Below, in pieces: positions 11,661-55,888 of a DNA stretch of 64,000 nt (positions within the stretch are counted from its first letter, which is position 1; each line of letters begins with the position of its first letter). The position numbers and the translations under genes are program-made. Location of the stretch: positions 32,001 through 96,000 of IMG/VR virus record IMGVR_UViG_3300044911_003339; one strand, written 5' to 3'. A model generated the notes under the pieces. That model ran no database searches, was not told where the DNA came from, and saw only the letters and a program-made list of their open reading frames with translations. This stretch comes from a virus.

Positions 11661-13460
11661 ATGGGCCTGTTCGACAAGTTCAAGGATGGATTCGAAGCGC
11701 TCGCGAAGGCGCTCGGCGAATCCGAGGAAGACGGCGAGGACATCCCCTTCGACAAGATGCGGGATGCCCTCGTGCGTTCAGGTCTCGCGGAACCGACGGA
11801 GGAGAAGCCGCGCGCGCTCTTCCACGATCCCTACGCGGTCACGGACTGGGGAGGCTGGCGAGAGCGACCGTCGTCGATGACGTACGAGACGCTTCGCATG
11901 ATGAGCGTGAAGAACACGGTCATCGCCTCCATCATCCAGATCCGGTGTAATCAGGTCGCGCAGTTCGGTCGGCCTCAGCAGGGCCCGTACGACAAGGGCT
12001 ACCGGATCATCCCGCGCGACAGGCGGGACAAGAAGAAGGTGCTCACGCCCGCGGAGAAGAAGCAGGCCGCGGAGATCGAGCGGATGCTGGAGACGACGGG
12101 CTTCCTCCTGCCCGGCGAGAAGCCCGCGGATCGCGACAGCTTCCGCACCTTCTTGCGGAAGGCCACGCGCGACATCCTCACCTACGACCAGTGGGCGTTC
12201 GAGAAGATTCGCGACCGCAAGGGTCGCGTCTCGCGCTTCATCGCGCTCCCCTCAGAGAGCATCCGGCCGGCGAGCGCGGACATCGAGCACATGGACGTGA
12301 AGTCCCTGCGCGAGCGCGTCTCGCACGTCCAGGTCTACGAGGACACGCCGATCGCCGAGTTCAGCCCCGAGGACATCGCGTGGTGCGTGATGAATCCTCG
12401 CTCCGACCTGCGCGCGAACGGCTTCGGCTTCTCGTACATCGAGATGCTCGTCTCGCTCGTGACCGCGTGGCTCTACGGGTTCGAGTACAACCAGCGATTC
12501 TTCATGCAGGGCAGCGCCATCAAGGGCATCCTGAACGTGAAGGGCGCGATTCCCGATCGTCAGCTTCGTGCGTTCCGACGCATGTGGTATTCGATGGTCT
12601 CGGGCGTGAGCAACGCGTGGAAGACGCCGATCCTCAACAGCGAGGATCTCCAGTGGGTCCCGCTCCACGTGAACAACCGCGAGATGGAGTACGGGCAGTG
12701 GATGGACTGGCTCACGAAGCTCACGTGCGCCGTGTTCGGAATCGATCCCGTCGAGATCAACTTCATCTTCGGCAACAGCGGGCAGTCGTCGTCGCTGAAC
12801 CAGTCGCGCCCGAACGCGGCGGAGGTCCAGGAGTCGAAGGACAAGGGCCTCGTGCCTCTCATGGACCACATCGCCGACAACCTGAACATGCACATCATCT
12901 GGGAACTCGCACCAGATTTCGAGTTCGCCTTCACGGGCTTCGACGCGCAGGCCGAGGAGAAGGAGCAGGAGGGTCGCATCAAGGCGGTCACGAACTACAA
13001 GATGATCGACGAGGTGCGCGCGCTCTACGAAGACGATCCGCTGCCGAACGGCATGGGCCAACTGATTCTGAATCCGACCTACATGCAGTGGGCGATGCAG
13101 AAGGAGCAGGCCGCGATGGGCGGACCTCCCGGTGGAGGTGAGGGCGACATGGGCATGGGCGATCCCGACGCGCTGCCCTCCACAGCACCGGGCAACGACG
13201 AGGAAGACCTCGCAGGGCCTCCCCAGAAGGGCCCGCCCAAGCCCGGCCAGCCCCCGAAGGGTCCGCAGGGCCCGCAACCCCCGAAGGGCGCGCAGAAGCC
13301 CCCAGGGAAGCCCTTCGGCTCCCCCGGTGAGGAAGCGCTCCAGGCGTCAGCCTTCGTCGAGCGCACGGCGCGTGGCATCCTCCGCAAGTCCCGCGTACAC
13401 ACGCGCACCGAAGGCGGGCGGGAAATCATCGACATCGAACTGCCGGAGGATCCGACATGA
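11661..13460 (+). CDS. Portal protein
   Basis: FLRKATRDILTYDQ.AFE, NPRSD..GFG.S.IE, YN.RFF.QG..KGIL, G..NAWK.PI, DP.EINF motifs of SPO1-like portals; Pro-rich tail. Confidence 0.92.
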   Translation: MGLFDKFKDGFEALAKALGESEEDGEDIPFDKMRDALVRSGLAEPTEEKPRALFHDPYAVTDWGGWRERPSSMTYETLRMMSVKNTVIASIIQIRCNQVAQFGRPQQGPYDKGYRIIPRDRRDKKKVLTPAEKKQAAEIERMLETTGFLLPGEKPADRDSFRTFLRKATRDILTYDQWAFEKIRDRKGRVSRFIALPSESIRPASADIEHMDVKSLRERVSHVQVYEDTPIAEFSPEDIAWCVMNPRSDLRANGFGFSYIEMLVSLVTAWLYGFEYNQRFFMQGSAIKGILNVKGAIPDRQLRAFRRMWYSMVSGVSNAWKTPILNSEDLQWVPLHVNNREMEYGQWMDWLTKLTCAVFGIDPVEINFIFGNSGQSSSLNQSRPNAAEVQESKDKGLVPLMDHIADNLNMHIIWELAPDFEFAFTGFDAQAEEKEQEGRIKAVTNYKMIDEVRALYEDDPLPNGMGQLILNPTYMQWAMQKEQAAMGGPPGGGEGDMGMGDPDALPSTAPGNDEEDLAGPPQKGPPKPGQPPKGPQGPQPPKGAQKPPGKPFGSPGEEALQASAFVERTARGILRKSRVHTRTEGGREIIDIELPEDPT

Positions 13461-14231: not shown

Positions 14232-16046
14232 GTGGCTCGCGTACGCATCGAAGCCCCCGAGGGACTGGACCGACTGACGCTCGCGCAGATCGTCGTCGGT
14301 CCTCACCTGCTTCTGAAGTCCCAGCACGTCCGGCATGCCGGCGAGCGGACGTTCTCGCGCTACGTCGCGCTCCAGGAGTTGAACGAGCACGTCGTGAAGT
14401 CGTTCGAGGAGACGCTGAAGCAAGCGCTGAAGCGCGCGGACGATTACATGCAGCGCACGGTGCTGCTCGCCGACGTGGGGCTGCGGAAGGCGGACGAGCA
14501 CCTCCCCGCGTTCCCTCCGCTCTTCACGCCCGAGCAGATGGAGGCGGTGCGCCGCATCCTCACCGATCACGTGCACGGCTTCATCGCGACGACCGTGGAT
14601 CCGAATCTTCTCTCGCAGCACGAGGTCGCGCGCCTGATCGCCGAGGGAGTGATTCCCGCGTCGATGAGCTACGTGTTCCAGGCCGAGCCGGGGCAGGAGG
14701 CTCCTCTCGCCGAGGACTGGATCGGAGCGGCCTACACCTACGGCGCGATGCTCGGCTCGATGCGAGAGGGCGATGACGCCGCCTACGTGAAGTCGCTGTC
14801 GTGGCCGACGTTCGCCAAGAAGCAGAAGGCACAGCCGCTCGTGCTGACCCCGCACGAGCAGGCCGCGCTCGACGTGGCGAAGCACAGCGCGGGCATCCAC
14901 TGCCGCGGGCTCGGGAACGAAGTCGCCGACGACTTCTCGACGATCGCCATCGACACGGACCGCGCGCTGCGGAAGCGATTCGAGCACGAGATCCAGACCT
15001 CGACCGAGGCGAACATCGCGCGCCGCGACGCGTGGCGGAAGCTCGCGAGCGACCTCGGGCACAAGACCGGGGACTGGGCGCGAGGCTTCGGGCGCATCGC
15101 CGCGACCGAGAAGCAGCGCGCGTTCCAGGAGGGATTCTCCACGACGCTGAAGAAGCGCGAGAAGAAGCGCCCCGAGGACGTGCGCGTCGCCAAGCTCCCG
15201 GCACCCGACGCGTGCCCCGACTGCGTGCGCCTGCACCTCACCGCAGGTCCCGGTTCCAAGCCGCGCATCTTCTCGCTCGCAGACCTGGAGGCCAACGGCT
15301 CGAACATCGGCGTGAAGCGCGCCTCGTGGAAGGCCGTCGTCGGGCCGGTGCATCCGTGGTGCGGGTGCGAACTCGTGCACGTGCCCGACGGCTGGGATTT
15401 CGACGACGAGAACAAGCTCATGCCCACGAAGCTCGAACGCAGCGCACGCCTGGAGGCGGACCTGCGGAAGAGCGCGGACAAGCAGCGACACCTGACCTAC
15501 AGGGAATCGGTTCCCGAGAAGGGCATCGTCGTTCGCGTCGGCGACCCGCTCACGCGAGCGGAGATCGACAAGGTGATCGCGCGCACGCCCGAAGTGCTGT
15601 TCGACCACAAGGTCGGCGTCACGCTCATCACGACCGATCTGCCGACGGTGCAGAACGTGCTCGACCCGCACGATCTCGCCTACTGGACGGGCAACGAGAT
15701 TCGCCTCTCGCAGACTCTCGCGCCCGAGCGCGTGAACCTCGTGCTCATGCACGAGTTCGGTCACGCGCTGAACGTGTTCCTCTACCAGAAGTTCGACGAG
15801 AACACGGACCGCGTGCGCGCGTGGCACGACGCCCTGTTCGCCATCGCGAAGGTCGAGGGCTTCGTCTCCGATTACGCGACCCGCGAGCCGATCGAGAACG
15901 CAGCCGAGGTGACCCGGCTCTACCTCTACGACCGGCCGAAGCTCATGCGGGAGTTCCCGCGGCAGTTCGCCTTCTGCCAGAAGGACTACCGCGACATCCT
16001 CCCGCCCTGGAAGTGGAGGAACGATGGCGATTCTAAAGATCGCTGA
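14232..16046 (+). CDS. MuF-like (SPP1 gp7-like) minor head protein fused to a C-terminal zincin metallopeptidase
   Basis: RIAATE..A, DACPDC, GPVHPWCGC.L (MuF Cys/His motifs); HEFGH..VSDYA...E..AE (zincin). Confidence 0.82.
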   Translation: MARVRIEAPEGLDRLTLAQIVVGPHLLLKSQHVRHAGERTFSRYVALQELNEHVVKSFEETLKQALKRADDYMQRTVLLADVGLRKADEHLPAFPPLFTPEQMEAVRRILTDHVHGFIATTVDPNLLSQHEVARLIAEGVIPASMSYVFQAEPGQEAPLAEDWIGAAYTYGAMLGSMREGDDAAYVKSLSWPTFAKKQKAQPLVLTPHEQAALDVAKHSAGIHCRGLGNEVADDFSTIAIDTDRALRKRFEHEIQTSTEANIARRDAWRKLASDLGHKTGDWARGFGRIAATEKQRAFQEGFSTTLKKREKKRPEDVRVAKLPAPDACPDCVRLHLTAGPGSKPRIFSLADLEANGSNIGVKRASWKAVVGPVHPWCGCELVHVPDGWDFDDENKLMPTKLERSARLEADLRKSADKQRHLTYRESVPEKGIVVRVGDPLTRAEIDKVIARTPEVLFDHKVGVTLITTDLPTVQNVLDPHDLAYWTGNEIRLSQTLAPERVNLVLMHEFGHALNVFLYQKFDENTDRVRAWHDALFAIAKVEGFVSDYATREPIENAAEVTRLYLYDRPKLMREFPRQFAFCQKDYRDILPPWKWRNDGDSKDR

Positions 16047-19000
16047 TCTCGTGAAGAGCGGAGGTCCGTACATCGGGCCGAAGGGCGGTGTGTGGGCCGA
16101 CCCGCAGCACACGGTGCCGTGGAAATCGGATCATGAGGACACCACCTCTCACTTGTTCCACTCCACGCCCGCGTACGCGATGAGCCGGATCAAGCGGGAA
16201 GGTCTTGCTCCGCGCAAGGGCGCAGGTCTCTTCCAGCACGGCGGCTACGATCTGCACTCGCAAGGCAAGGTGTTCCTCTCGAACAACCTCTACGCGGCGA
16301 AGCAGTGGCACAGCAAGGTCGAGGCTCAACTCGAACACCACCACGATAATCCGAAGCACCACGTTGCAGTCATGCTTCGTGTGAAGCCTCGGGAGACGCA
16401 TCTCGACGATGTTGGAGACCGCGATGTGAGCGGCTCTCGCTTCGTGCGCGACGTTGTGCCTGCAACCGACATCGAGTTCTTCCACGAAGGTACGAAGCGC
16501 TGGAAGCCGGTGAAGGATTACAAGCACGGCACGCACGGTATCCCGGACGACCACTACGAAGCTCACGCGCCGCGCGACGAAGAGGCAGACGCCGCCGAGA
16601 AGGCCGCAGCGAAAGAGGCACGACGCGCGAAGCGCGAAGCCGAGGAGCAGGCGACTCGCGCGCGGCTCGCGGCGCTCCAGGAGGAGCGCGCGAAGCGCGA
16701 GGCTGCGGAAGCGCAGGTTCACTTCAGGGATTCTGACGAAGGCAAGGCAATCCTCACGCGCTGGAAGGGCCTCTCCCCCGAAGAGCGTCAGGCGAAGGCG
16801 AAGCGCATCCTCGACGCGCCCCGCCCTTTCCCCGGCGCTCCCTCGATGCTGTCGCTCGGGCAGCGAGGCGAGGTGTGGCGCGAAGCTCTCGGAGTCGATG
16901 AGAAAGGGAATCTCGTGAAGTCGCGATTCATCATCAAGGCAGGCCCCTCAGGTGGGGGTTGGATGCCGATCCCCGGAGGCCACCACGGAGGGCTTCGGCG
17001 ACGACACGGCGCGGGCTGGGAGTACTGGTACCCGAACGGAGCCCCGCACTTCGTGCTCCGCGAGCAGAAGCACCCCGAGGAGCAGCACGGGCACGAGCAG
17101 ATCGACCCGGAGCCCTCGCACTGGGCCCTCGTCACGCCCGGCCCCGGCCTGCCCCCGGTCGGGTGGACCGCGGGCGGCGTGAACCCGCACGACACGAAGA
17201 CCCCCGTGAAGGAGGCCGGTGTCTCGGGGAAGCTCTACCGCATCAAGAATCCGCACATCCGAGAAGGCTGGGCGCTGCTCACCGACGTGCGCTCGGGCGA
17301 GGACCACATGGTCCAGCACGACCGCGTGATGCCCGTTCGGTGGCTTTCGCCCGAAGAGAGGGCTCTCCAGGGCTCTACAGAGCCTCAGGAGCCGTTTTCG
17401 ACCTGGAAGCCAGGGGTGGGTCCCTCCAAGCGCCCGAGCGGCGGAGGGGCGTCTGAGGGCAAGCGGATGCCCTCCTTCCCCGACTCCCGAGCGCTGCCCG
17501 GAACCGAGACGCACAAGCTGGAGAACGGCGCGTACGTCTGGCGCAAGGTCACGCGGTACGAAGCCGACGAGGACGGCACCACTCGCAAGGTCGAGCGGCT
17601 CGCGCCTGGAATCCCCGACTCCGACAAGATCGCGCTCATCGCAGAGTACGAGGGCCTCGTCGCCAAGACGGCGAAGCGCGTGCGCAGCGCGTTCGGGCTC
17701 AGCGCCCGCCTCTCCACCGGCCCCGGTCAGCGCACGGTGGACGACACGCTCGTCGAGCTTCGGCAGGCCGGCGTGGAGGGTCTGCTCCACGCCATCGACA
17801 GCTATCGCCCCGTGGGCCCGTTTGCAGCGCACGCCCAGCAGTACGTTCGCGATTACGCGCGTCTCCACGCCGCACGGGAGTTCGCGGGAGGCATCGCGAT
17901 CCCGCGGCGGCATGCGCGCCTGCTCTCGTCCTACATCGCGGCCCGCGCAGAGGCCGCGCGCGTGAGCGGAAGCCACGACCCGAGCCCCGAGGTGGTCGCG
18001 GAGTTCTGGAAGCCGAAGAAGCGGGACCTGCACTCGGGCCTCTCGCCCGAGGAAGGCGGAGGAACGATTCCTCTCGCTGGCTACACGCTGAAGCGCAAGA
18101 CGACCTCGACCGATCCCGAGACGGGCAAGAAGAAGACGACCGTCGAGGGCGAGGACGTGGTGCAGCAGCCCGGCCGCCTGGAGTGGGCGCAGCAGTTCCA
18201 CGCGTTCCTCGTCGGGCAGGGAGGCATGGCGGACATCGACGAGCAGGCCGCGCTGTTCCCCGGCCTCGGCGTCGGCACGGGGCTCGGCGCGGACGAGCGC
18301 ATCGCCGTGCGCGAGGCGATGATGCGCGCGCTCCCTCCCGACGGGACGATCGTCACGGTCCAGGCGGGCCCGCAGGCCCAGTTCCGCGGCGAGACCTGGA
18401 AGGCGATCGACCTCGCCCTCGGGCTCTCGTCGGGCGATCCGCTGCCTCTCGACGAAGTGGTCCGTCGCGTGCCCGTCGAGGGATCGCGCGGAGGTGAGTG
18501 GAAGCGTCTCGGAAGCTCGCGAGCGCGCGCCGCGATCGAGGCGCTCATCCGCGACGGCCTGAACACGGTCGCGCGTCACCTGCGAGGCGACGAGGACCGA
18601 GCAGCGTCGCTCGCGCAGGCCCTCGTGACGAAGCTCGTGCCGACCGAGGCTCCGAAGGAGCGGCTCCCCACGATGCGAGAGCGAATCCGCGCTGCGATGG
18701 CCCGCATCACCCCGGCCGAGGTGCAGCGCTGGCGCGAGGAGACGCGAGCGCGCTACCCCGAGCGGCCCGACATCGGCCGACGGATGTCTCGTGTCACCGA
18801 TTCCGAAGCGAAGCGCCGCATCGTCGAGGAGCGCATCGCCGCAGCCCCGCTCACGCCCGAGATGCACGAGGCGATGCTCCGCACGATGACGGCGATTCGC
18901 CAGGGCGTCTCGGCCTCGGGCCAGAACGTCTTCGGCGTCGTGGACCCGAAGGGGTCGAAGAAGAGCCTGCGCGTGCACTCGCTCTCCAAGGCCGGCGACC

Positions 19001-19137
19001 ACGGCGCGTCCGATTCGGCTATGGTCGGGGAGTGGCTCCGGTTCCCGGAGCTTTCGCGACTTCGCTGGGCGAGCGAAGATCCGCTCGTGCACGCTCCGAC
19101 GATCGCTCGCGCACGGTTCGATTCCATCATCGGGTGA
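16024..19137 (+). CDS. Polyvalent protein: ADP-ribosyltransferase/Tpt1-like domain + sigma70-like regions 2 and 4
   Basis: LFHST....I..EGL.P, VFLS, MLRV, VP..DI (ART fold); LV...AKR, EL.QAG.EGLL.AI.SY....F..HA..YVR, I.IP (sigma region 2); LGL....L.L.EV (region 4-like). Confidence 0.7.
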   Translation: MAILKIADLVKSGGPYIGPKGGVWADPQHTVPWKSDHEDTTSHLFHSTPAYAMSRIKREGLAPRKGAGLFQHGGYDLHSQGKVFLSNNLYAAKQWHSKVEAQLEHHHDNPKHHVAVMLRVKPRETHLDDVGDRDVSGSRFVRDVVPATDIEFFHEGTKRWKPVKDYKHGTHGIPDDHYEAHAPRDEEADAAEKAAAKEARRAKREAEEQATRARLAALQEERAKREAAEAQVHFRDSDEGKAILTRWKGLSPEERQAKAKRILDAPRPFPGAPSMLSLGQRGEVWREALGVDEKGNLVKSRFIIKAGPSGGGWMPIPGGHHGGLRRRHGAGWEYWYPNGAPHFVLREQKHPEEQHGHEQIDPEPSHWALVTPGPGLPPVGWTAGGVNPHDTKTPVKEAGVSGKLYRIKNPHIREGWALLTDVRSGEDHMVQHDRVMPVRWLSPEERALQGSTEPQEPFSTWKPGVGPSKRPSGGGASEGKRMPSFPDSRALPGTETHKLENGAYVWRKVTRYEADEDGTTRKVERLAPGIPDSDKIALIAEYEGLVAKTAKRVRSAFGLSARLSTGPGQRTVDDTLVELRQAGVEGLLHAIDSYRPVGPFAAHAQQYVRDYARLHAAREFAGGIAIPRRHARLLSSYIAARAEAARVSGSHDPSPEVVAEFWKPKKRDLHSGLSPEEGGGTIPLAGYTLKRKTTSTDPETGKKKTTVEGEDVVQQPGRLEWAQQFHAFLVGQGGMADIDEQAALFPGLGVGTGLGADERIAVREAMMRALPPDGTIVTVQAGPQAQFRGETWKAIDLALGLSSGDPLPLDEVVRRVPVEGSRGGEWKRLGSSRARAAIEALIRDGLNTVARHLRGDEDRAASLAQALVTKLVPTEAPKERLPTMRERIRAAMARITPAEVQRWREETRARYPERPDIGRRMSRVTDSEAKRRIVEERIAAAPLTPEMHEAMLRTMTAIRQGVSASGQNVFGVVDPKGSKKSLRVHSLSKAGDHGASDSAMVGEWLRFPELSRLRWASEDPLVHAPTIARARFDSIIG

Positions 19138-19145
19138 GGTTCTCC

Positions 19146-19490
19146 ATGAAGAGGTTCTCCATCGACCCCGCCACGCTGCCGACCACATGGCGGGTCGGGC
19201 GGCGTGTCGGCAATAGCGGGCTGGAGCACGCCTTCGATCTCCGCCGTCGGGATGACGGCGGAATCTCCATCTCGAACGTCGAGCACCCGCTCACGGAGAC
19301 CGAGCGCACCATGCTGCTCTCGCACTTCGGCAAGGCGCGCGTCGTGACGATCGGAGGCGAGGCCGACAACGGCGCGCTCGTGACGACGATGCAGCGCCAC
19401 GAGCCGGGGGAGATCGAGAACTTCGTGGAGGCGGTCTACTCGCTGCCCTCACCCTTCATGGTGATGCCGAACGCTCGGAGGGAGACATGA
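19146..19490 (+). CDS. Hypothetical protein (114 aa)
   Basis: SD GAGGT before ATG 19146; ATGA-coupled to the next gene. Confidence 0.65.
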   Translation: MKRFSIDPATLPTTWRVGRRVGNSGLEHAFDLRRRDDGGISISNVEHPLTETERTMLLSHFGKARVVTIGGEADNGALVTTMQRHEPGEIENFVEAVYSLPSPFMVMPNARRET

Positions 19491-22400
19491 GCCGGTTCGT
19501 GATTCCTGCGCTCCGCGCCGCACTGCCGGACGCCCTGGCGAAGTCGTTCCAGCGAGGCCCGCTCGCGCAGCACAAGTACCTGAAGCGAGAGCCCTACTTC
19601 GTCGGGGGCAAGCTGCGCTGGAGGTACTGGTACGCGAGCGACGAGCTTCGCAAGCAGGGCATGGTCGAGCACGACCCCGCGGGCGAGCACGAGCACCACC
19701 TGCTCGCGAACATCGCGGACATCTACGAGCACTTCAAGTCCGTGATCCGCTCGACTGCTGCGACCCCGACGACGGCGATCGAGGGAATCTTCCAGGCCGC
19801 GGTCGATGACCCGAAGGCGCAGCGCGTGCCACAGGTCGCGATGTCTCCGGCGTTCCAGGCGCAGCACGTTCAGCCGTTCATCGACGCAGAGGCGAAGGGA
19901 GCACCTCCCGAGGCGAGCCCGATCGTGCGCGTGCACGACGCGCTGGAGATGGTGCCCGACTACCTCCTGAAGCTCGTGATGGGCGGGACGAAGAACACGA
20001 AGCACCCCGGCTACAAGGGGCTCGGCCCGTACCCCGGTCTCTCCGCGCTCGTGATGAATCGCCAGGAGGACGAGGGAGCGGATTACGCGAACACCGCAGG
20101 TTGGGCGCATCCGAAGACGGGCGAGCTTCACCTGCTTGGCGGCGGCTCGGGCAAGCACGGCAGCGATTCGAGCTACTCCTTCCTCGACGGCGGCGACCCT
20201 GCCACGGCTCCCACGCCGACGGACTTCAACGACGCGAAGGTGCATCTCGAAAAGGTCGTCTGGCACGAGCTTGGGCACCACGTGCACTTCACGCTGGAGA
20301 CCGAGCAGCCGGACGTGATGGATTCGTGGAGGGACCTCTCGACGGGTCCGGGTCCGAAGCCGACGGCCTACGCGCACACGGCATGGTGGGAGGACTTCGC
20401 AGAATCCTTCTCGGGCTGCTTCGCGCTCCCGAAGGTGATGGCGATGCGCTGCCCCGAGCGATACGACTGGATGCGACAGCACGTCCTGAAGTCGCTGCCC
20501 GAGAGGTCCGCGCTCCTGAAGATGTCGGACGAGGAACTCGCGTGGTGGAACAAGAAGAAGACCACGCCGCCCGGCAAGCTGCTGATGCACCTGAAGTCGA
20601 ACGCGCCCGCGCGTCGCTTCGGTGCCTACTACAGCGACAAGGACCAGTTCTTCACGGTCGGCAAGGGAGGGCGCACGGTCTACCTGCGCTTCGGTCCGTC
20701 CGAGCCTGATCAGGAGGACGGCTGGACGCAGGTCCCCTCGACCATCGACCCGGAGACCGGGCTGCCGGTCTACGACGCCGCCTACGGTCCGCGCTTCAAG
20801 GTGCAGGGCAACCTGAAGGAGATGTACGACGAGCGCGGGAATCCGCTCGACGACTTCCAGGCGTTCCTCTACCTCGGACAAGACGACCCCGAGGTGCAGA
20901 AGTTCGTCGCCGACACGATGGAGAAGTACGTCGCGACGTTGCCTCCGAACTCGCCGCAGCCGACGGAGTACGACGCGGTGCAGTGGCTCGCCGCGAAGGG
21001 CGGCGACGAGGCGAAGGCTCTGGAGACGCGTCTGCTCTCGTACAAGATGTACACGTCGCTCGGCTACAAGCGGGAGTCGGAGAAGATTTCCGCGAAGGAA
21101 GCCCACACGACGGAGAAGGAGCGCAAGCGAGTCGAGAAGGAGCGCGCGAAGGGCGGCACGGGCTACCTCGATCGCCACGACTGGGTTCCGGTCGAGATTC
21201 CTCGCTCGGAGTTCGTTCAGAAGTCGGGCACCTTCAAGTTCGACAACGTGCGACCCGCGGAGTACCAGCCGTGGCAGGCCCGCGAGTGGGATCCCGTCAC
21301 GAAGACCTCGCGTGTGAAGACCGTCTACGACCCTGCGGCCGGCAAGGTGGTGCCCGTGCGCACGGCGACGGTCTACGAGCAGGAGAACCCCGACGGCACG
21401 ACGTTCCGTGTGACGGTCGCGGAGGGCGAGCCCTTCTCGATCGGACAGACCATCCTCGCGCCGGTCAGCGTGAAGCTGCCCGACGGTCGCATCTCGCAGG
21501 ACTGGCAGCCCTACAAGCTGTCCGTCGAAGACGGCGAGATGACCGTCACGAACCTCGCGAAGAAGTTCCGCGTCGATCCTGAGGCGCTCCTTCGTCAGAA
21601 TCACCGCTACATGCGCGGGCAGATCACGGACCCGATGCTCGCCGCGCTCCTCAACCCGAGCGGCGAGGTGATTCGCGATCAGTTCGATCTCATGCGCCTC
21701 ATGAAGCTCGCGGCCGAGCAGCCCACGCCGCCGACCGCGTGGGTCAGCGTCCGGGGCAAGACGGGCTCGATCGCTCACTTCAAGGTGAGCTTCGACGGCT
21801 CGGGCCCGCCGCGCGTCGAGGGTCGTCAGTGGGCCGCGAAGCTCGGGAAGGACCCGACCGAACCCATCCGCCTCGATCAGATTCTCGGGAAGGACGACGA
21901 ACTCATCGGCGTCGAGACCGTGCGCGAGCGGAAGGCGAAGGAGGTCAAGATCAAGCCGGGCGGCCTGGTGTGGGTCACCGTCAAGAATCACCTCGGCGAC
22001 GCGAAGCGCGTGATGGCGCGCTACATCGAGAAGAAGTCGTTCGAGGAGAAGGGCAAGAAGAAGAACGCCCACGTCGTCCAGGTGCTCCCCGGTCAGGGCA
22101 CGGGTCTGCCGAAGGACCGCGTGATCGTCACGCGCGTGAACAAGAGCGACGAGAGCCAGATCCCCGGCAAGCCGGAGATTCGTCGGCGCTTCGTCGAGCC
22201 GATGCAGAAGGACGTGCTGCTCTACGCCGACGAGGTGCGGGTCGGCTCGGGCGACCGAGACACGAGCGGCGTGATCAAGATCCTCCCGCCGAAGAACGGC
22301 TCGGTCACGAAGGCGCAACTCGCTGCGATTCCTGGCGTGCGCATCATCGGACTGGAGAAGGCACGGAACAAGAAGGGCGGAGCAGTCACGGAGGAGCTTC

Positions 22401-25400
22401 CCGAGGGCGTCGAGCTTGCCATCTCGCCCCGTGACCTCCCGGCCTTCCGGGAGTACCTCGGCGGCTTCGTGATGGACGAGCGCGTCTCGTCCATGATGGA
22501 CGAGCAGGCTGCCATCATCCGAGAGCGCGCGCTCCAGGTGACCGGAGAGGACTGGCCTCCCGCAGACCAGATCGTCGATGCGGACGGCAACGTGAATCCC
22601 AACGGAGTGCTGCGCGGCATGGTGACGGGCGCGATGGGCATGCAGCCCGGCGCGCATCGCATCGAGGCGCTTCAGCGCGTCGCGATGAACAACGGTCGCC
22701 TCATCGCTGCGCACTTCATGGGCACGGGCAAGACCGCGTTCTCGATCGCAGCCGCGCAGATGATGCGGAACCTCGAATCCCGCGAGCAGCCCGGCAAGCC
22801 GCACCCGAATCAGGTGAAGAAGAAGGTGCTCGCGCTCGTGCCGCTCAACACCGCGAACAACTACGCCGACGAGGTGGAGGTGTTCACCGGAAGGCCCGCA
22901 ACGATCATCGGCTCGGGCTCGCTCGCGGGCAGCGTGCGGATGTTCCGCATGCCGAAGGACCAGGGCCAGAAGAAGAACGAGACGCGCGAGGCGTTCATCG
23001 CGCGCTCGCTCGCCGCATGGAAGGCGGCGGTCAAGACCGACCCGACGCTGTGGAACCCGTGGGCAGACGATTCCCAGATGTGCGTCTGCCCCTACGAGTA
23101 CTTCCGCGACAACGAGGAGTTGATGCGGGCCACGGAGATGTTCGACGGGCTCGTCGTGGACGAGGCGCACAACATCGCACGTGAGAACGAACTCTCACGT
23201 GCGGTCGAGCGCTGGAATCCGAACATGAACATGTTCCTCATGCTCACCGGCACGCCCGTGACGAACACGCTCGACGTGCTCCCGCGTATGGCGAGCCTCG
23301 TGAGCGCGGGCAAGGTGAACCTCGGCACGAAGCAGGAGTTCACGGAGCGCTACCTCGTCGGCTCGGCTGTCGCGAAGGGCGAGGGCGCGAAGAATCCTCC
23401 GAAGACGGACCTCAACCCGCAGCGTGCCGGCGAACTGGCGGCGATCATGCGTCCGCTCATGCACATCGCGACGACGCAGGACGTGAAGGGCAAGACGATG
23501 CCCGCGGTGCTGCTCGACGAGAACAAGCCCGCGCACATGATCGGTCAGCAGGCGCGCATGTACCGACTCTCGATGGCGAAGTTCACGCCCGAGGAGAAGG
23601 CGGCGATCATCGAGAGCGGTGCGGTCGGCACCGACGAGTCGTACGCGCTCGATGACGAGGGTCGCCGCAAGATCGGTGTCGCTCGCTCGATCGCGAACTG
23701 CCTCGCCTACAAGGCACCCGACCAGCGTGAGAATCTCACGTACGAGTCGAAGAGCACCGAGGAGAAGAAGGGCAAGGTCATCGAGAAGACCGTCACCCGC
23801 GTCTTCTCGCTGCCCACGCACGCGATGATGACGACGAAGCGCCCCGAGGGCTGGGGCGGGAAGTGGCCGACGTTCTCGGAGGTCGAGAAGGGAATCGTCG
23901 AGCCGGGCTACTACAACGTGCTCTCGGAGTACTACGAGCGCCTCTTCGGCGTGACGTACGACTCCGTGGAGGGCAAGCCCATCGCGAAGGAGATCCTGGA
24001 CGGCGTGAAGCGCGGCGACTACGTGACGCCGAGCGGCGCGCCGTGGGGTACGGTCGTGAATCCCGATTACGGCCCAGAGGGCATGATCTGTCGCGGCACG
24101 CTCGACCCGGTGACGGGCAAGATCGAGCCGCTGCGGAAGGAGATCGTCGAGAACGGGCAGAAGCGCGTCGTCGAGGTCAAGCCGGGCACGCGCTTCATCC
24201 GCGATCCGAACTCCAAGGCGGCGGGCCTCTTCTACCACGAGGATGACTGGAACTTCACCGGCCGCTTCATCGACTCGGGCGAGGGAGGCGGCGGCGAGGG
24301 TGGAGGCGAGGACGATCCGTCCGACCCGAAGCCCGCGTCTGCCGGCAAGCAGGCCCCGAAGGACCCCTCGCTCTCCATCCAGCGTTCGACGAAGCGCCGG
24401 AAGGAGCGAGAGATGTTCGACCTCGCGGTCACGGCGGGCAACGCGAAGAGCGACGAACTGGAGCAGTACATCCACAACGCGCTTCGCGACGACAACCTCG
24501 GGCCCGATCAGCAGTTCATCCTCTTCGGGAATCGCATCGGCTCTTCCTTCCGCACGATGGAGAGCAAGCTCCGCACGATGGGATTCCAGGACGTGAACGA
24601 AGCGCTCGGGCACCCCGAGTGGAGCACGGCCGAGGACAAGGCGATGATGCCTCGGAAGTTCTTCGTGACGTACGCGGGCAAGGGAGCAACGCTCGGCGAC
24701 CGCGACATCAACTCGGAAATCTTCCGACAGAAGCTCGACCAGTTCGGCCACAAGACCGGGCAGTCGATGTTCGTCTTCCGCACGCTCAACGGCGGCACGA
24801 AGAAGCCACCCAAGGTCGGCGAGATGCGCGAGGGCTGGAGCCGTGGCCAGCGGAAGCGCATCGCCGACGCTCTCGCGGAGCCCACGCGCAAGACGGCCGA
24901 GGGCAAGCCTGCGGGCCTGGAGGTGCCGATGCGCGTGACGAGCGTCGAGGTCGATGGTCGCATCGAGCAGCGGTACCTCTACGAGTCGGACATGAAGCCG
25001 AAGGATCGCGCAGAGTTCCTCCGGCTGGAGAAGGAGCGCCGCGGCGCGGACAAGGCGCGCAAGCAGGCGATCGACGGCGAGATGCGCGCGCTCGCCGACC
25101 GCTACTGGAGCGACCGGATTCCTCTGTCCGATCACTACCAGTACGTGCTGAACAACACGCAGATCATGGTGGCGACCGACGCCGCGAACGTCGGCCTCAA
25201 CTGGCCTGCTCCCAAGCTCGTCATGTACGACTCGCTCTTCTCGCCGATGGACGAGTGGCAGCGCATGACGCGTGCGGCCCGCATGCTCGACGCAGCGGTC
25301 ACCGGACCCGCGAAGAAGTACGTCGAGAAGATCGACGCGAAGCTCTCCGAGATGGAGAAGCAGACCGGGCTGAAGGAGTACGGACCAGAATCTTCCCTTC

Positions 25401-26122
25401 AGGCGGTGCAGGACGCGATCGAGTCGCTCCCCGAGGACGAGCGCGCCGAGCTTCTGAACCTGGAGGGAGGAGGCCCCGATCAGATCGTCGAGGCCATCTT
25501 CAGCCGTCGCGCCATGGACAAGATCGCGAAGCTCCGCCCCGAGGTCGGCGCGCATCTCCGGCAGGCCGGCGCTGCGCCTGATCCCGATCGCCCCGAGATC
25601 CGCATCCGTCCATCGGCCATCCAGGAATCCGACGTGACGAACGAGATCATCCGCAAGCACCTCACGCCCTTCGAGCAGCGCGTGCTCCGAGGACGCATGT
25701 ACCTCGTGGACGTGAAGCGGCTCACGACCTCGTGCGACGTGCCCGAGATGAAGTCGATTCGCATCGAAGACCCGATGACGGGCAAGAAGACCACGGTTCA
25801 GGTCCCGACCGGCAAGTGGTCGGTCGAGGCTCCGACGCAGGCCGAGCGAAGCCAACTCACGCAGGGCCGCATGAAGATGGTGCCCTACGAGAAGGCGATG
25901 AAGGCGTTCCAGAACGCGCAGCCGGTGAAGACCGACTACGACTTCCTCGTGACGCCTCGCGGGAGCGTGCGTAGCTTCTCGATCATGCCTGAGGAGATCG
26001 AGCGCGAGAAGGCGAGTCGCGCGAAGCGCGAGGTCGCGAAGCCGAAGCCCACGAAGACGAAGAAGTCGGAGAGCTACAGCCGATTCTTCATTCCAGCGCG
26101 AACCGCGCGCGGGGAGGCGTGA
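19487..26122 (+). CDS. 2211-aa polyvalent protein: HKY tag + zincin peptidase + LysM-like + SNF2/SWI2 helicase
   Basis: HELGH..TAYA..W.EDFAESF; LAKKFRVDPEALLRQN; HFMGTGKT, LVVDEAH, LTGTP.TN, VATDAANVGLN, YD..FSP....QR..RA.R. Confidence 0.85.
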   Translation: MSRFVIPALRAALPDALAKSFQRGPLAQHKYLKREPYFVGGKLRWRYWYASDELRKQGMVEHDPAGEHEHHLLANIADIYEHFKSVIRSTAATPTTAIEGIFQAAVDDPKAQRVPQVAMSPAFQAQHVQPFIDAEAKGAPPEASPIVRVHDALEMVPDYLLKLVMGGTKNTKHPGYKGLGPYPGLSALVMNRQEDEGADYANTAGWAHPKTGELHLLGGGSGKHGSDSSYSFLDGGDPATAPTPTDFNDAKVHLEKVVWHELGHHVHFTLETEQPDVMDSWRDLSTGPGPKPTAYAHTAWWEDFAESFSGCFALPKVMAMRCPERYDWMRQHVLKSLPERSALLKMSDEELAWWNKKKTTPPGKLLMHLKSNAPARRFGAYYSDKDQFFTVGKGGRTVYLRFGPSEPDQEDGWTQVPSTIDPETGLPVYDAAYGPRFKVQGNLKEMYDERGNPLDDFQAFLYLGQDDPEVQKFVADTMEKYVATLPPNSPQPTEYDAVQWLAAKGGDEAKALETRLLSYKMYTSLGYKRESEKISAKEAHTTEKERKRVEKERAKGGTGYLDRHDWVPVEIPRSEFVQKSGTFKFDNVRPAEYQPWQAREWDPVTKTSRVKTVYDPAAGKVVPVRTATVYEQENPDGTTFRVTVAEGEPFSIGQTILAPVSVKLPDGRISQDWQPYKLSVEDGEMTVTNLAKKFRVDPEALLRQNHRYMRGQITDPMLAALLNPSGEVIRDQFDLMRLMKLAAEQPTPPTAWVSVRGKTGSIAHFKVSFDGSGPPRVEGRQWAAKLGKDPTEPIRLDQILGKDDELIGVETVRERKAKEVKIKPGGLVWVTVKNHLGDAKRVMARYIEKKSFEEKGKKKNAHVVQVLPGQGTGLPKDRVIVTRVNKSDESQIPGKPEIRRRFVEPMQKDVLLYADEVRVGSGDRDTSGVIKILPPKNGSVTKAQLAAIPGVRIIGLEKARNKKGGAVTEELPEGVELAISPRDLPAFREYLGGFVMDERVSSMMDEQAAIIRERALQVTGEDWPPADQIVDADGNVNPNGVLRGMVTGAMGMQPGAHRIEALQRVAMNNGRLIAAHFMGTGKTAFSIAAAQMMRNLESREQPGKPHPNQVKKKVLALVPLNTANNYADEVEVFTGRPATIIGSGSLAGSVRMFRMPKDQGQKKNETREAFIARSLAAWKAAVKTDPTLWNPWADDSQMCVCPYEYFRDNEELMRATEMFDGLVVDEAHNIARENELSRAVERWNPNMNMFLMLTGTPVTNTLDVLPRMASLVSAGKVNLGTKQEFTERYLVGSAVAKGEGAKNPPKTDLNPQRAGELAAIMRPLMHIATTQDVKGKTMPAVLLDENKPAHMIGQQARMYRLSMAKFTPEEKAAIIESGAVGTDESYALDDEGRRKIGVARSIANCLAYKAPDQRENLTYESKSTEEKKGKVIEKTVTRVFSLPTHAMMTTKRPEGWGGKWPTFSEVEKGIVEPGYYNVLSEYYERLFGVTYDSVEGKPIAKEILDGVKRGDYVTPSGAPWGTVVNPDYGPEGMICRGTLDPVTGKIEPLRKEIVENGQKRVVEVKPGTRFIRDPNSKAAGLFYHEDDWNFTGRFIDSGEGGGGEGGGEDDPSDPKPASAGKQAPKDPSLSIQRSTKRRKEREMFDLAVTAGNAKSDELEQYIHNALRDDNLGPDQQFILFGNRIGSSFRTMESKLRTMGFQDVNEALGHPEWSTAEDKAMMPRKFFVTYAGKGATLGDRDINSEIFRQKLDQFGHKTGQSMFVFRTLNGGTKKPPKVGEMREGWSRGQRKRIADALAEPTRKTAEGKPAGLEVPMRVTSVEVDGRIEQRYLYESDMKPKDRAEFLRLEKERRGADKARKQAIDGEMRALADRYWSDRIPLSDHYQYVLNNTQIMVATDAANVGLNWPAPKLVMYDSLFSPMDEWQRMTRAARMLDAAVTGPAKKYVEKIDAKLSEMEKQTGLKEYGPESSLQAVQDAIESLPEDERAELLNLEGGGPDQIVEAIFSRRAMDKIAKLRPEVGAHLRQAGAAPDPDRPEIRIRPSAIQESDVTNEIIRKHLTPFEQRVLRGRMYLVDVKRLTTSCDVPEMKSIRIEDPMTGKKTTVQVPTGKWSVEAPTQAERSQLTQGRMKMVPYEKAMKAFQNAQPVKTDYDFLVTPRGSVRSFSIMPEEIEREKASRAKREVAKPKPTKTKKSESYSRFFIPARTARGEA

Positions 26123-26656: not shown

Positions 26657-26716
26657 CGCTGCTGCCGGATTCGTGACACACCATGGACCGTGGCCTGCTC
26701 CCGTGTGGAGCACGAG

Positions 26717-26752
26717 AGGCGACCGAAGGAGAAATCCATCGGTCGCCTTTTT
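26717..26752 (+). terminator. Terminator/attenuator-like hairpin before the prohead protease
   Basis: AGGCGACCGA-aGGA-GAAA-TCCa-TCGGTCGCCT-TTTT. Confidence 0.7.
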
Positions 26753-26782
26753 CGTTCTCGGGTCGCAGATCGCGCGGACGCG

Positions 26783-27538
26783 ATGAAGACCTCTCCCCAG
26801 CGCAAGTTCAGCTTCGACTTCGATGTCGAGGTGTTCGAGAAGGCGAGCCCCGAAGGAACGGAGCGCCGCATCGGCGGAATCGTGTCCACCGATCACCTCG
26901 ATCGTCAGAGCGAGGTGCTGCTTCAGGAGGGCCTGGACTTCTCGCCCTTCCTGAAGGGCGGGTGGTTCAACGACAACCACGAGTCCACGACGGACAGCGT
27001 GATCGGCTACCCGACGGCGGCCGAGCTTCGTCACCTGCCGGACGGCAGGAAGGGCTGGTACGTCGAGGGCTACCTCCTGAAGACCGACCGCGCGAATCGG
27101 ATCTGGGACCTCGCGACCGAGCTTCAGCGCTCGGGCTCGGGGCGCAAGCTCGGATTCTCGGTCGAGGGCTCGATCGCCGAGCGCGACCCGGACGACCCGA
27201 AGAAGGTCCGCAAGGCCGTCGTGCGCGAGGTCGCGATCACGAAGTGCCCGGTCAACACGAACACCGCGCTGCACGTGCTGGCGAAGTCGCTGGCCGTTGG
27301 TGCGGGTGGGCCGCCCTCAGGGCCGACGGGTGACGCGAGCGTGCTCGCGCCCGAGGCTCTGGAGGGCGTGAGTCCCGCGCGCCCGAGTCCGAAGGACCCG
27401 AAGAAGCGCCGCAAGGTCAAGCAGCGGATGAACAAGTCCGAGGCTGTGGATTTCTTGCTGTCGGTTCGGCCTGGGATGTCTCGGGCGCTCGCAGAGCGCG
27501 TGGTCGAGTACGCGATTCGGTGGCACCCGGCCGCCTGA
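26783..27538 (+). CDS. Prohead (capsid maturation) protease
   Basis: IGGIVST..LDRQ.E.L.Q.GLD..F..GWFN.NH, G.YVEG.L, LGFSVEG, EVAIT..PVN; directly upstream of scaffold/MCP. Confidence 0.88.
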   Translation: MKTSPQRKFSFDFDVEVFEKASPEGTERRIGGIVSTDHLDRQSEVLLQEGLDFSPFLKGGWFNDNHESTTDSVIGYPTAAELRHLPDGRKGWYVEGYLLKTDRANRIWDLATELQRSGSGRKLGFSVEGSIAERDPDDPKKVRKAVVREVAITKCPVNTNTALHVLAKSLAVGAGGPPSGPTGDASVLAPEALEGVSPARPSPKDPKKRRKVKQRMNKSEAVDFLLSVRPGMSRALAERVVEYAIRWHPAA

Positions 27539-28658: not shown

Positions 28659-30083
28659 ATGAACACCACCCCGTTCGTCAGCGCACGCGACTACGGCGGC
28701 TTCGGGTCGAGCAGCCCCGACGAGATCGCCGCACTCAGGAAGGCCCTCTACGCGGGCCAGGACGTGAACGCCCCCGCGGTCGTTCCCGGCGAGGGCTTCC
28801 CGCTCCGCACCGAATCTCTGGAGGCGAGCTTGAAGGTGCTCACCTACGAGATGGACGAGATCAAGCTGTTCAAGACGATCAGCAAGATTCCCGCGACGAA
28901 CACCGTCGAGGAGTTCAACCGTCTCCTGAGCTACGGCCGCGGCGGCAGCCGACGCTTCAACCTCGGCTGGATGACCGAGGGCGATCTTCCCGAGGAGGAG
29001 GACTCGACCTACGAGCGCATCACGATGCAGATCAAGTTCCTCGGCGTGGTCGGCCGCGTGACCCACGTCGCGAACACGATCCGCGCCGCGCACGGCAACG
29101 TGATCGCGATGGAGACGCAGAACAAGACGATGGAACTGCTGAAGCAGTTGGAGAACGCGCTGTTCTTCGGCGATTCCTCGCTCATCCCCGAGCAGATCGA
29201 CGGCCTCGAACGCCTCATCACCGCGGGTGCTCCGAACAACGTCATCGACCTCCGCGGTGGACCGATCACCGAGGAGATCATGAACGACTCGCTGCTCCAG
29301 ATCCGCGACAACTTCGGCATGGCGACCGACTGCTACCTCGGCACGGGCCCGTTCGCGGACCTCGCGAAGCAGGTCTACGACCGTCAGCGCTTCGGCGTCG
29401 CTCCGGCTCCGGGCGTGCTCGGCGCGCAGGTGACGGCGTTCCAGGGCCAGCACGGCAAGGTGTCGATGCACGACCACGTGTTCATCACGGAGGGTCAGAC
29501 GGCGCTCGCTGCGGGCCTCGGCTCGACCACGAAGCGCGCGGCGGCTCCGACCATCACCGTCGCTCCCGCGGCCGGTGCGGCGGCGGGCTCGCTCTTCACC
29601 GCGGCCGACGCGGGCACCTACATCTACCGCGTGGTGGCGGGCAATCGCTTCGGCCTCAGCGTCCCCGTGAACTCGGCGGGCGTGGCGGTCGTCGCGGGCG
29701 ACGGCGTGACCTTCACGGTCGCGGACGGCGGCCCCCCGAGCGCGACCTTCTACGAAATCTACCGCACGACCCCCGGAGGCTCGGCGGCAGATGCTCGTCT
29801 CATGACGCGCGTCGCGCGCACGGGTGCCACGCAGGTCATCACCGACCTCAACGCGGACATCCCCGGCACGTCGAAGGGCTTCATGCTCATGCAGAACGCG
29901 CGCTCGTTCTCGTGGGCGCAGCTTCTCCCGATGACGCGCATCCCGCTCGCCGCGATCGACACGTCGATCCGCTGGGCGCAGGTGCTCTACGGCGGCGTGA
30001 AGATGTACACGCCCGCGAAGAACATCGTGTTCAAGAACATCGGTCGCCTGCCCGGCTCGCTCCCGTCGTCGGTCGTCCCCTGA
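28659..30083 (+). CDS. Major capsid protein
   Basis: ALRK|ALYAG propeptide, LRTESLE..LK.LT, A..TV.E(F)N, EG.L..E.D..Y.R, E..LFFGD, inserted TY.Y.V.A.N..G.S domain; followed by terminator. Confidence 0.93.
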   Translation: MNTTPFVSARDYGGFGSSSPDEIAALRKALYAGQDVNAPAVVPGEGFPLRTESLEASLKVLTYEMDEIKLFKTISKIPATNTVEEFNRLLSYGRGGSRRFNLGWMTEGDLPEEEDSTYERITMQIKFLGVVGRVTHVANTIRAAHGNVIAMETQNKTMELLKQLENALFFGDSSLIPEQIDGLERLITAGAPNNVIDLRGGPITEEIMNDSLLQIRDNFGMATDCYLGTGPFADLAKQVYDRQRFGVAPAPGVLGAQVTAFQGQHGKVSMHDHVFITEGQTALAAGLGSTTKRAAAPTITVAPAAGAAAGSLFTAADAGTYIYRVVAGNRFGLSVPVNSAGVAVVAGDGVTFTVADGGPPSATFYEIYRTTPGGSAADARLMTRVARTGATQVITDLNADIPGTSKGFMLMQNARSFSWAQLLPMTRIPLAAIDTSIRWAQVLYGGVKMYTPAKNIVFKNIGRLPGSLPSSVVP

Positions 30084-55754: not shown

Positions 55755-55888
55755 GCTCTCTCCTTACCCGATTACGACCCGCTCCTCTCCGGCCGGACTC
55801 TGGTGCTGGGATCGCGCGGAGCGCACAATGGGTCGGGCGAAATCCGAAGCGAAGCGCGGACACACGCCCCCCATTAGCCGCTCCGCGG

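Follow-up and report, generated by a model that had tools for sequence, protein, structure and literature searches.

A sigma70-like module and an ADP-ribosyltransferase-fold domain in a modular head-cassette protein of a bacteriophage, a possible virion-carried transcription factor

In the 64,000-nucleotide window analyzed here (bases 32001-96000 of the 105,161-bp IMG/VR virus record IMGVR_UViG_3300044911_003339, rated complete by CheckV), the open reading frame (ORF) at 16024..19137 on the + strand encodes a protein of 1037 amino acids, P0001, whose C-terminal core is homologous to the sigma70 family and whose N-terminal domain has the fold of ADP-ribosyltransferases (ARTs). The gene lies inside the head morphogenesis cassette of the phage, and proteins with the same core carry different enzymatic modules, or heads, at their N termini. 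An ART domain and a copy of a sigma factor in one head-cassette protein may constitute a virion-carried factor for the take-over of transcription, which has not been described before.

Phages are known to start transcription either from promoters read by a host sigma factor or with an RNA polymerase of their own that is injected (N4, phiKZ-like, and crAss-like phages). The likeliest account of P0001, put forward tentatively since we give it somewhat less than an even chance, is that of an initiation factor resembling sigma that arrives in the capsid and bears an enzymatic head open to exchange. It would be a "polyvalent" cargo protein built of modules and encoded in the head cassette, made late, loaded into the procapsid via short tags, possibly cut by the prohead protease at hydrophobic-x-K-[SAG] sites, and introduced together with the phage DNA into the host infected next. 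Its constant C-terminal part, a module of the sigma70 family that is divergent yet complete (regions 1.2/2 and 3, a linker, and region 4), would dock on the host core RNA polymerase in the manner of sigma and allow initiation on the incoming genome ahead of all phage gene expression, and the variable head, here an ART of the type of the NAD-binding lobe of Tpt1/KptA, would be a co-delivered effector that depends on nicotinamide adenine dinucleotide (NAD) and modifies RNA polymerase or the phosphate end of a nucleic acid. Injection of a sigma-like subunit would be a third, cheap way for a phage to begin transcription.

The C-terminal core is homologous to the sigma70 family

The ORF starts with ATG at 16024, 4 nt downstream of GGAGG at 16015-19, and overlaps the 3' end of the preceding gene by 23 nt. 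As the protein has homologues down to an E value of 0 and yields confident structure models, the possibility that the ORF is an artefact of high G+C content (~67% in this phage) was rejected. Since single-sequence searches with P0001 found nothing significant in Pfam (E ≤ 10, five segments), in PHROGs, or with phmmer in the PDB, its similarity to known proteins is visible by profiles and folds only; tblastn against 50,697 records of cultured phages also gave nothing significant.

A profile alignment of residues 297-1037 with 63 relatives (A4) matched chains of SigA, RpoS, FliA, and RpoD among the PDB sequences, with a best whole-sequence E value of 9.8e-10. The matches fell into two collinear stretches, one from region 2 to region 3.0 and one in region 4, and nearly all of them were sigma factors, excepting InPase matches that stem from the heads of relatives. 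In hhalign, the same alignment recovered E. coli RpoD with a probability of 94.3% (E = 1e-7, 209 columns), residues 376-586 of sigma70 running collinearly with residues 535-821 of P0001 (regions 2.1 to 4.2), and E. coli FliA with a probability of 92.4%. Conservation of region 4 is weak, and the per-domain hidden Markov model E values are ~0.5 to 1; the hhalign alignment extends to sigma70 residue 586. The NCBIfam SigF model gave an E value of 0.018 only.

Within the core, the region 1.2/2-like domain (residues 489-625; 17488..17898), assigned by profile and fold, is the best-conserved part of the family. It is followed by a region 3-like helix with a beta-hairpin insertion and a Gly-rich loop (residues 626-756; 17899..18291), where DPSPEVVAEFW aligns to sigma region 3.0 in both hmmsearch and hhalign and the conserved loop LFPGxxxGxGL, whose residues P450, G455, G457, and L458 are invariant in alignment A5, occupies the place of the sigma3-sigma4 linker. 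The region 4-like domain (residues 757-862; 18292..18609) was assigned by profile, model, and fold matches.

The AlphaFold2 model of residues 297-1037, built with A4, has a mean predicted local distance difference test score (pLDDT) of 85 and a predicted template modeling score (pTM) of 0.74. In Foldseek against the PDB, the top rows were sigma factors over ~340 columns, with weak E values because sigmas in holoenzymes are extended. In a follow-up comparison with VIA, sigma28 (9wsf_A) gave a Z score of 9.2, 78 residues superposing with a root mean square deviation (rmsd) of 1.8 A and 24% identity. All 50 rows listed were sigma factors or sigma-containing complexes, and they spanned positions 193-566 of the model, corresponding to residues 489-862 of the protein. 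A second, unbiased VIA search, independent of Foldseek, found sigma2 and sigma4 separately: 1sig_A (Z = 8.7, 1.5 A over 75 residues), 5h6x_B (Z = 9.1), and T4 gp55 (Z = 7.3) for sigma2, and 6ono_B (Z = 6.1, 69 of 69 residues), 2h27_D (Z = 5.7), 3vep_D, and 4g6d_A for sigma4. The best named matches in BFVD were phage sigma factors, and the ESM Atlas neighbors include clusters that carry Sigma70_r2/r4. Taken together, these results give good support to common ancestry of the core with sigma70-type factors from region 2 through region 4. The first-pass annotation had proposed segments resembling sigma regions 2 and 4; both proposals stand, the former at residues 535-640 (17626-17943) and the latter at the region 4-like domain.

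Two further domains flank the sigma module. Between tag 2, described below, and the module lies a small beta barrel of the SH3/Tudor/KOW type (residues 379-446; 17158..17361; model strands 98-144), whose VIA matches (Z = 5.4 to 6.1) include Tudor domains and the KOW domains of NusG/Spt5; as this fold is too common, we assign the fold alone and read no function from it. At the C terminus, the model shows a family-conserved domain of helices and a beta-sheet (175 residues, 863-1037; 18610..19134). No fold match covered residues 863-1037 or the tags.

The core is the constant part of a family with exchangeable heads

A search of an index of 5.8 billion proteins gave 15 relatives of P0001, and with the whole protein as query an exhaustive HMMER search of 1.84 billion representatives recovered 420 sequences at E ≤ 1e-3, or 70 at the stricter limit of E ≤ 1e-30. 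Segments of P0001 were matched independently of one another, namely tag 1 (residues 7-41), the N-terminal domain (42-182), a helical segment (164-299), tag 2 (297-356), and the core (~460-1037). A scan of GTDB genomes with P0001 found no relative and hence pinpointed no prophage or host, and scans of IMG/VR with the relatives P0018, P0009, and P0004 gave matches to the InPase domain only, or none.

The architectures of 160 retrieved proteins were surveyed. The sigma core is present in 85 of them, always as the last, C-terminal module, and in most full-length members tag 2 stands directly ahead of it. The N terminus of most relatives is not an ART but PF18823, the InPase (pyrophosphatase of polyvalent proteins), sometimes together with an S-adenosylmethionine (S-AdoMet or SAM) lyase; among the 85 sigma-core proteins, 55 carry the InPase, only 9 an ART, and several an S-AdoMet lyase, while in four (P0004, P0025, P0026, and P0035) nothing but tag 2 precedes the core. 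Conversely, 50 of 59 proteins with the ART domain have no sigma core. The sigma-core proteins are an unannotated family of modular polyvalent proteins, without coverage in Pfam, PHROG, or NCBIfam, and because the heads vary so widely, the ART-sigma fusion is one combination among many.

Gene context was read in four related phages. One (L002) is a 96% identical relative, a second (L013/L014) encodes a protein of the order ART-coil-InPase-sigma core (P0005), and in a third (L042) the ART is replaced, P0012 consisting of InPase, SAM lyase, and sigma core. These three share a block made up of a homologue of the ORF at 14232-16046, the sigma-core protein, a 114-residue ORF, a giant SNF2 protein, and the protease. 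The fourth phage (L016), with a portal 64% and a capsid protein 73% identical to those of the window, has no sigma core, small ORF, or SNF2 gene, and a sole protein of 472 residues composed of tag 1 and InPase (L016:9908-11323) lies between its MuF-like/zincin gene and its protease. The absence of the block from L016 and the other head in L042 indicate that the block is a variable, optional cargo slot with an exchangeable head. Between L042 and the window, identity falls from 82% in the capsid protein to 60% in the protease, 44% in the small ORF, 41% in SNF2, and 32% in the sigma core (G+C content of L042, 59%); such fast divergence of the sigma core relative to the capsid is typical of host-interface proteins.

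The first-pass annotation had inferred an injected package that modifies and redirects the host polymerase or competes for it. An obligatory pairing of ART and sigma was rejected, only 9 of the 85 sigma-core proteins having an ART, and the idea of a single designed pair is weakened further by the head swap in L042, the missing gene in L016, and the tag boundary between the two parts.

Tags and candidate cleavage sites separate the modules

Tag 1 (residues 8-33; 16045..16122; low pLDDT), a recurrent inter-module motif, reads DLVK-SGGPYIGPKGGVWADPQHTVPW, the site being DLVK11-S12 plus GGPYIGPKGGVWADPQHTVPW. Tag 2 (residues 297-337; 16912..17034), which heads the sigma core in most full-length members of the family, reads LVK-S..IIK-AGPSGGGWMPIPGGHHGGLRRRHGAGWEYWYP, with sites at LVK299-S300 and IIK305-A306 plus GGGWMPIPGGHHGGLRRRHGAGWEYWYP. 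In the retrieved proteins, the tag 1 consensus GP[FY]IGP[KR]GGxWADPxHT[IV]PW occurs in 110 copies in 59 proteins, with at most 4 per protein, and the tag 2 consensus GWxxIPxGxxGGxRRxxxxG[WY]xYWYP in 70 copies in 60 proteins; nearly every copy of either tag is preceded by hydrophobic-x-K-[SAG]. The K-S site and second tag noted at first pass are thus recurrent elements of the family. Tags of the form HKYI[AS]RK....GG[WY].Y.YP, related to tag 2 through GxWxYxYP, are found in the ORF at 5252-7552 (residue 241) and at the N terminus of the zeta-kinase ORF at 8259-11624 (residue 17).

Because a conserved tag 2 with its hydrophobic-x-K-[SAG] site stands between the ART and sigma parts, the two may be separated. 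Both tags, together with the K-[SAG] sites that bound them, are candidate elements of a general code for loading into the capsid or for processing. The giant proteins of the phage contain many hydrophobic-x-K-[SAG] sites, and one is located at K28 of the capsid protein.

The N-terminal domain has an ART fold of the Tpt1 type

The ART-fold domain comprises residues 38-165 (16135..16518) and was recognized by its fold and by weak sequence matches to Tpt1. A long helical extension follows (residues 177-290; 16552..16893; pLDDT 94 to 98; helices at 186-231, 238-264, and 279-289) and accompanies the ART domain in many relatives, giving the "ART-coil" architectures. The AlphaFold2 model of residues 1-300, built with 35 relatives, reached a pLDDT of 90. 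The best Foldseek rows were KptA/Tpt1 (E = 1e-4), followed by the A chains of cholera, pertussis, and heat-labile toxins, TreX, and pierisin, and every further row after Tpt1/KptA was an ART toxin or DarT. VIA superposed residues 38-165 on residues ~87-180 of Tpt1/KptA chains, the NAD lobe, with Z scores of 8.2 to 8.3, an rmsd of 2.0 to 2.4 A, and 24 to 27% identity. Hints of Tpt1 in the sequence stay below threshold (E = 0.08; NCBIfam NF002013 at E = 0.029 and 13.9 bits against a cut-off of 231), and in Pfam the domain has no match, the cut-off of PF01885 (Tpt1/KptA) not being reached. PF01885 also matched a further alignment (A3; best E value, 5.5e-7), but of ten members checked, P0096 alone had an overlapping hit on the homologous domain, and a weak one (E = 0.069); the strong match could stem from another domain and was set aside.

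The H-S-T and VFLS motifs from which an ART was first proposed do fall in this domain (nt ~16159-16281), H46 within LFHST and VFLS at residues 83-86. The accompanying comparison with T4 Alt found no support: the closest fold is Tpt1/KptA, and at the conserved beta-1 position the domain has His where R-S-E enzymes have Arg. The Foldseek and VIA lists contained no Alt-like row and no PHROG match to Alt, ModA, or ModB (R-S-E ARTs) was obtained; a distant kinship may still exist. The domain has an ART fold of the Tpt1 type, is not a Tpt1, and does not appear Alt-like.

Among 59 non-identical members, residues H46, R64, H72, Y75, H78, S79, K82, R119, D128, D134, S138, and E151 are conserved at 83 to 97% (H46 at 97% and E151 at 85%), and the presumed second triad position is Phe84. 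Judged by this conservation of polar residues, the domain looks like an active enzyme. It shares the H-x-T, GL-P-R, and V-x-L-S motifs with Tpt1, has Phe in place of the second His of Tpt1, and contains a conserved 15-residue insertion as well as a conserved basic/His loop (H72, Y75, H78, S79, and K82) and R119. Only tag 1 (residues 1-37, of low pLDDT) precedes it, and the alignments start at about residue 87 of the Tpt1 chains, so the RNA-binding N-terminal lobe of Tpt1 is missing. This N lobe holds most of the R-H-R-R catalytic tetrad. ARTs consisting of the Tpt1 lobe alone would make up a compact, strongly conserved enzyme family.

The kinship with Tpt1 raises a reading in which the domain acts on nucleic acid ends and not on proteins, independently of the sigma module, by transferring ADP-ribose from NAD to a terminal phosphate (for example, the 5' phosphate of injected DNA or a cleaved tRNA). 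Tpt1/KptA is both the closest fold and the source of the only sequence hints, GL-P-R64 and V-x-L-S are kept together with the basic loop and R119, and the domain occurs in 50 of 59 cases without a sigma core; on the other hand, the lobe that binds RNA and holds most of the tetrad is absent (chain residues 87-180 alone are aligned), and Phe replaces the second His of the motif. We consider this reading somewhat unlikely, while taking it seriously. The 254-residue ORF that follows the portal gene (13457-14221, + strand) has a very weak NCBIfam match to RNA 2'-phosphotransferase at positions 27-72 (E = 0.087, no stretch passing); the matched part is the N lobe, which has no counterpart in the ART-like domain, and the match is probably due to chance.

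The gene lies in the head cassette, among genes for putative cargo proteins

Placement of the gene in a head module, as first proposed, is confirmed by its neighbors, all on the + strand. Upstream are the genes for a Zeta-toxin/kinase-domain protein of 1121 residues (8259-11624), the portal protein (11661..13460; PF04860, E = 1.5e-21; phrog_12, E = 1e-50), the 254-residue ORF, and the ORF with weak zincin matches at 14232-16046. Downstream are the 114-residue ORF (19146..19490), coupled translationally through ATGA to the gene for the SNF2-helicase polyvalent protein (2211 residues; 19487..26122) of the same variable cargo block, and then the head maturation (prohead) protease (26690..27538; phrog_1028, E = 4e-50), a probable scaffold gene, and the major capsid protein (28659..30083; phrog_752, E = 4e-87; PF17236), which is 32 to 35% identical to capsid proteins of SPO1-like phages. 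The 114-residue ORF, which has no match in Pfam or NCBIfam, has syntenic homologues of 44 to 49% identity in L013, L014, and L042; it is always downstream of the sigma-core gene and is gone in L016, where the sigma core is gone. Its product could be a chaperone, inhibitor, or immunity partner of the cargo proteins.

Several features count for a packaged protein: (i) the gene stands between the portal gene and those for protease, scaffold, and capsid; (ii) the block of sigma-core gene, 114-residue ORF, and SNF2 gene is syntenic in L002, L013/L014, and L042 and missing in L016; (iii) the heads of the family (InPase, SAM lyase, and ART) are kinds of modules also seen in polyvalent proteins that are packaged in virions (PMC5512222; PMC9503650); and (iv) an InPase of the same type forms the C terminus of a portal protein, that of Pseudomonas phage Pa193 (gp19; PDB 9b41_L), which the InPase profile matches at residues 635-760 with an E value of 2e-29, a part that is not resolved in the published model, which ends at residue 528, and goes unremarked there (PMC11456595).

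Alternatively, the protein may not be cargo at all but a late-expressed intracellular factor, for instance a late sigma or a protein involved in assembly or in the handling of DNA. Such a factor would simply be encoded in the head operon and use its tags otherwise. This would agree with the dispensability of the gene in L016 and with the known phage sigma factors, which act after expression in the cell (PMC7824862). However, it would be awkward for a late sigma to be encoded within the very operon that it must switch on, and the position between the portal/MuF-like gene and the protease, tags in common with neighboring giant proteins, and polyvalent-type heads all match predicted packaged proteins. 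We regard an intracellular role as distinctly unlikely.

A promoter-like motif is concentrated outside the structural region

The motif AATCG[TG]GTA[AG], mostly in the form of the 12-nt TAATCGTGTAAG, occurs 14 times in the genome, compared with ~0.24 copies expected by our own estimate from base composition. Eleven copies are found on the + strand of the first 28 kb (genome positions 681-27208) and none between 28 and 87 kb, the structural region; the remaining ones are at window positions 55773 (-) and 56624 (+) and at genome position 100087. Most have an ATG 8 to 9 nt downstream (leaderless) or AGGAGG ~10 nt downstream, and no conserved -35 element was found near the 14 copies. Among related records, only the near-identical G001 has the motif (7 copies), the others being structural fragments. 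On sequence grounds, the motif is likely a phage-specific single-element promoter used outside the structural region. Its distribution suggests that the phage has private promoters in need of a dedicated factor, and an injected sigma-like subunit would explain private early promoters without a private polymerase.

A second sigma-like ORF is located at genome positions 103722-105161 and runs across the end of the record (L001:1462-2901), with matches to Sigma70_r2 (E = 5.1e-7; 26.5 bits against a cut-off of 24) and sigma70-ECF (E = 0.0015). When the record is read as a circle, this frame remains open over 685 codons. The ends of the record lie in repeated sequence, and its first 100 nt recur elsewhere. 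A scan of the genome with the Sigma70_r4 model gave no match, and a search for a T7-like RNA polymerase (PF00940) gave none either, but its control was also silent, so the latter is uninformative.

What the sigma-like module may do on the polymerase

The core-binding motif of region 2.2 is recognizable in P0001 as E/D-L-x-Q-x-G-x-x-G-L-x-x-A-x-x-x-Y, with ELRQAGVEGLLHAIDSY retained. Regions 2.2 to 2.4 are the most conserved stretch of the family, and the equivalents of the DNA-contacting residues (Y430, W433, Q437, and T440) and the recognition helix of sigma4 are variable, which is to be expected of sigmas with different promoter specificities. From the -10 set of sigma70, F427 (F600) and an aromatic residue at W434 are retained, and the other positions vary across the family. 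Alternative sigmas likewise differ at the -10 recognition residues. The frequent fusion to InPase (55 of 85) fits a role that promotes transcription and provides a first contextual hint about the purpose of the InPase of polyvalent proteins.

Several observations weigh against a capsid-delivered initiation factor: (i) the Pfam models Sigma70_r2 and Sigma70_r4 stay below every threshold for P0001, with no match even at E ≤ 10; (ii) the residues with which sigma70 melts and recognizes the -10 element are lost, Y430, W433, W434, Q437, and T440 being replaced by H603, Q606, Y607, D610, and R613 in the hhalign mapping; (iii) sigma4 is poorly conserved, and a beta-hairpin is predicted (residues 818-828) within the turn of its helix-turn-helix; (iv) AlphaFold gives one compact body (pTM 0.74) instead of beads on a string, so that the core-binding faces might be buried; (v) the sigma-core block is dispensable in the related phage L016; and (vi) the second, more ordinary sigma at 103722 could equally read the TAATCGTGTAAG motif.

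Some of these points fit two other readings in which the module would bind the host polymerase without starting transcription. As a docking handle, it would recruit the co-delivered enzymes, or the injected DNA by its end, to the polymerase without directing initiation. Heads that vary (ART, pyrophosphatase, or SAM lyase) yet always precede the same core, conservation that is concentrated in the core-binding region 2.2 and not in the DNA-reading residues, and the hairpin in the sigma4 helix-turn-helix all speak for a handle. Nevertheless, the conserved tag and hydrophobic-x-K-[SAG] boundary suggest separation of head and core rather than tethering, cores exist on their own (P0004, P0025, P0026, and P0035), and a full sigma2-3-4 span with its linker exceeds what a handle needs, which makes this rather unlikely in our judgment. 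As a decoy, the injected module would fill the sigma site of the host core enzyme, or titrate a partner of sigma, and so shut off host transcription. The evidence for docking on the polymerase is the same as for an initiation factor, and the lost -10 recognition residues and compact predicted fold suit a nonproductive binder; but a few dozen packaged copies would hardly be enough to titrate thousands of polymerases, and the fusion to a pyrophosphatase suggests aid to synthesis, not inhibition (PMC5512222). We hold a decoy to be very unlikely.

The capsid-delivered initiation factor can be extended from P0001 to the whole family, at least 85 metagenome clusters, all of which would be capsid-carried sigma factors that are packed by their tags, released by the prohead protease, and injected, and that would make the host core RNA polymerase read promoters devoid of a -35 element (TAATCGTGTAAG in this phage) at time zero, their heads aiding the first minutes of infection. 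If so, sigma factors that travel in a virion would be known for the first time, and immediate-early transcription would have a third solution next to promoters for the host sigma and polymerases that are injected. This extension is a doubtful one, and we think it unlikely.

Comparison with known systems

Polyvalent proteins were described by Iyer, Burroughs, Anand, de Souza, and Aravind (2017; PMC5512222) as giant proteins, packaged in phage heads, that combine many modules, the InPase and ART among them. A sigma module is absent from that paper (0 occurrences of the word) and from the viral NAD/ADP-ribose survey (PMC9503650), phage sigmas figure in a survey of jumbo phages solely as factors that are expressed (PMC7824862), and full-text literature searches found no description of a virion-borne or polyvalent sigma-like module. 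P0001 resembles polyvalent proteins in being a large, multi-module protein encoded near the portal, beside portal, MuF, and head genes, with several unrelated effector modules in its family (InPase [PF18823], ART, and S-AdoMet lyase) that are shared with other polyvalent proteins and freely recombined as heads (PMC5512222). It differs from them in its sigma module, in the lack of any LPD or Pfam family over the 740-residue core, and in two linear tags that are absent from Pfam.

With the sigma70 family (sigma28/FliA, RpoS, ECF sigmas, and T4 gp55), the core shares the region 2.2 motif, regions 1.2/2 and 3, and, less securely, region 4, which profile and fold comparisons place in collinear order. 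Unlike these factors, it sits at the C-terminal end of a 1037-residue head-cassette protein, stays below Pfam thresholds, has lost the -10 residues, and has acquired beta-hairpin insertions, one of them in the sigma4 helix-turn-helix turn, an extra N-terminal barrel, and an extra C-terminal domain.

The head resembles the NAD-binding lobe of Tpt1/KptA, on which it superposes at 2.0 to 2.4 A with 24 to 27% identity and with the H-x-T, GL-P-R, and V-x-L-S motifs in common, and differs in having no RNA-binding N lobe, a conserved insertion of 15 residues, Phe for the second His, and scores below the PF01885 threshold. The likeness to T4 Alt is one of proposed logic only, that of an ART which would be synthesized late and enclosed in the head, and which after injection would act on transcription (PMC5512222); sequence and fold give no match to Alt, Tpt1/KptA being closest, and the His at beta-1 contrasts with the Arg of R-S-E enzymes. 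Finally, virion RNA polymerases (N4 vRNAP, phiKZ/AR9 vRNAP, and crAss-like gp66) share with the proposed system the idea that the capsid brings along what early transcription requires; whereas those phages inject a polymerase, the phage described here would inject a sigma-like specificity or docking subunit that uses the core enzyme of the host.

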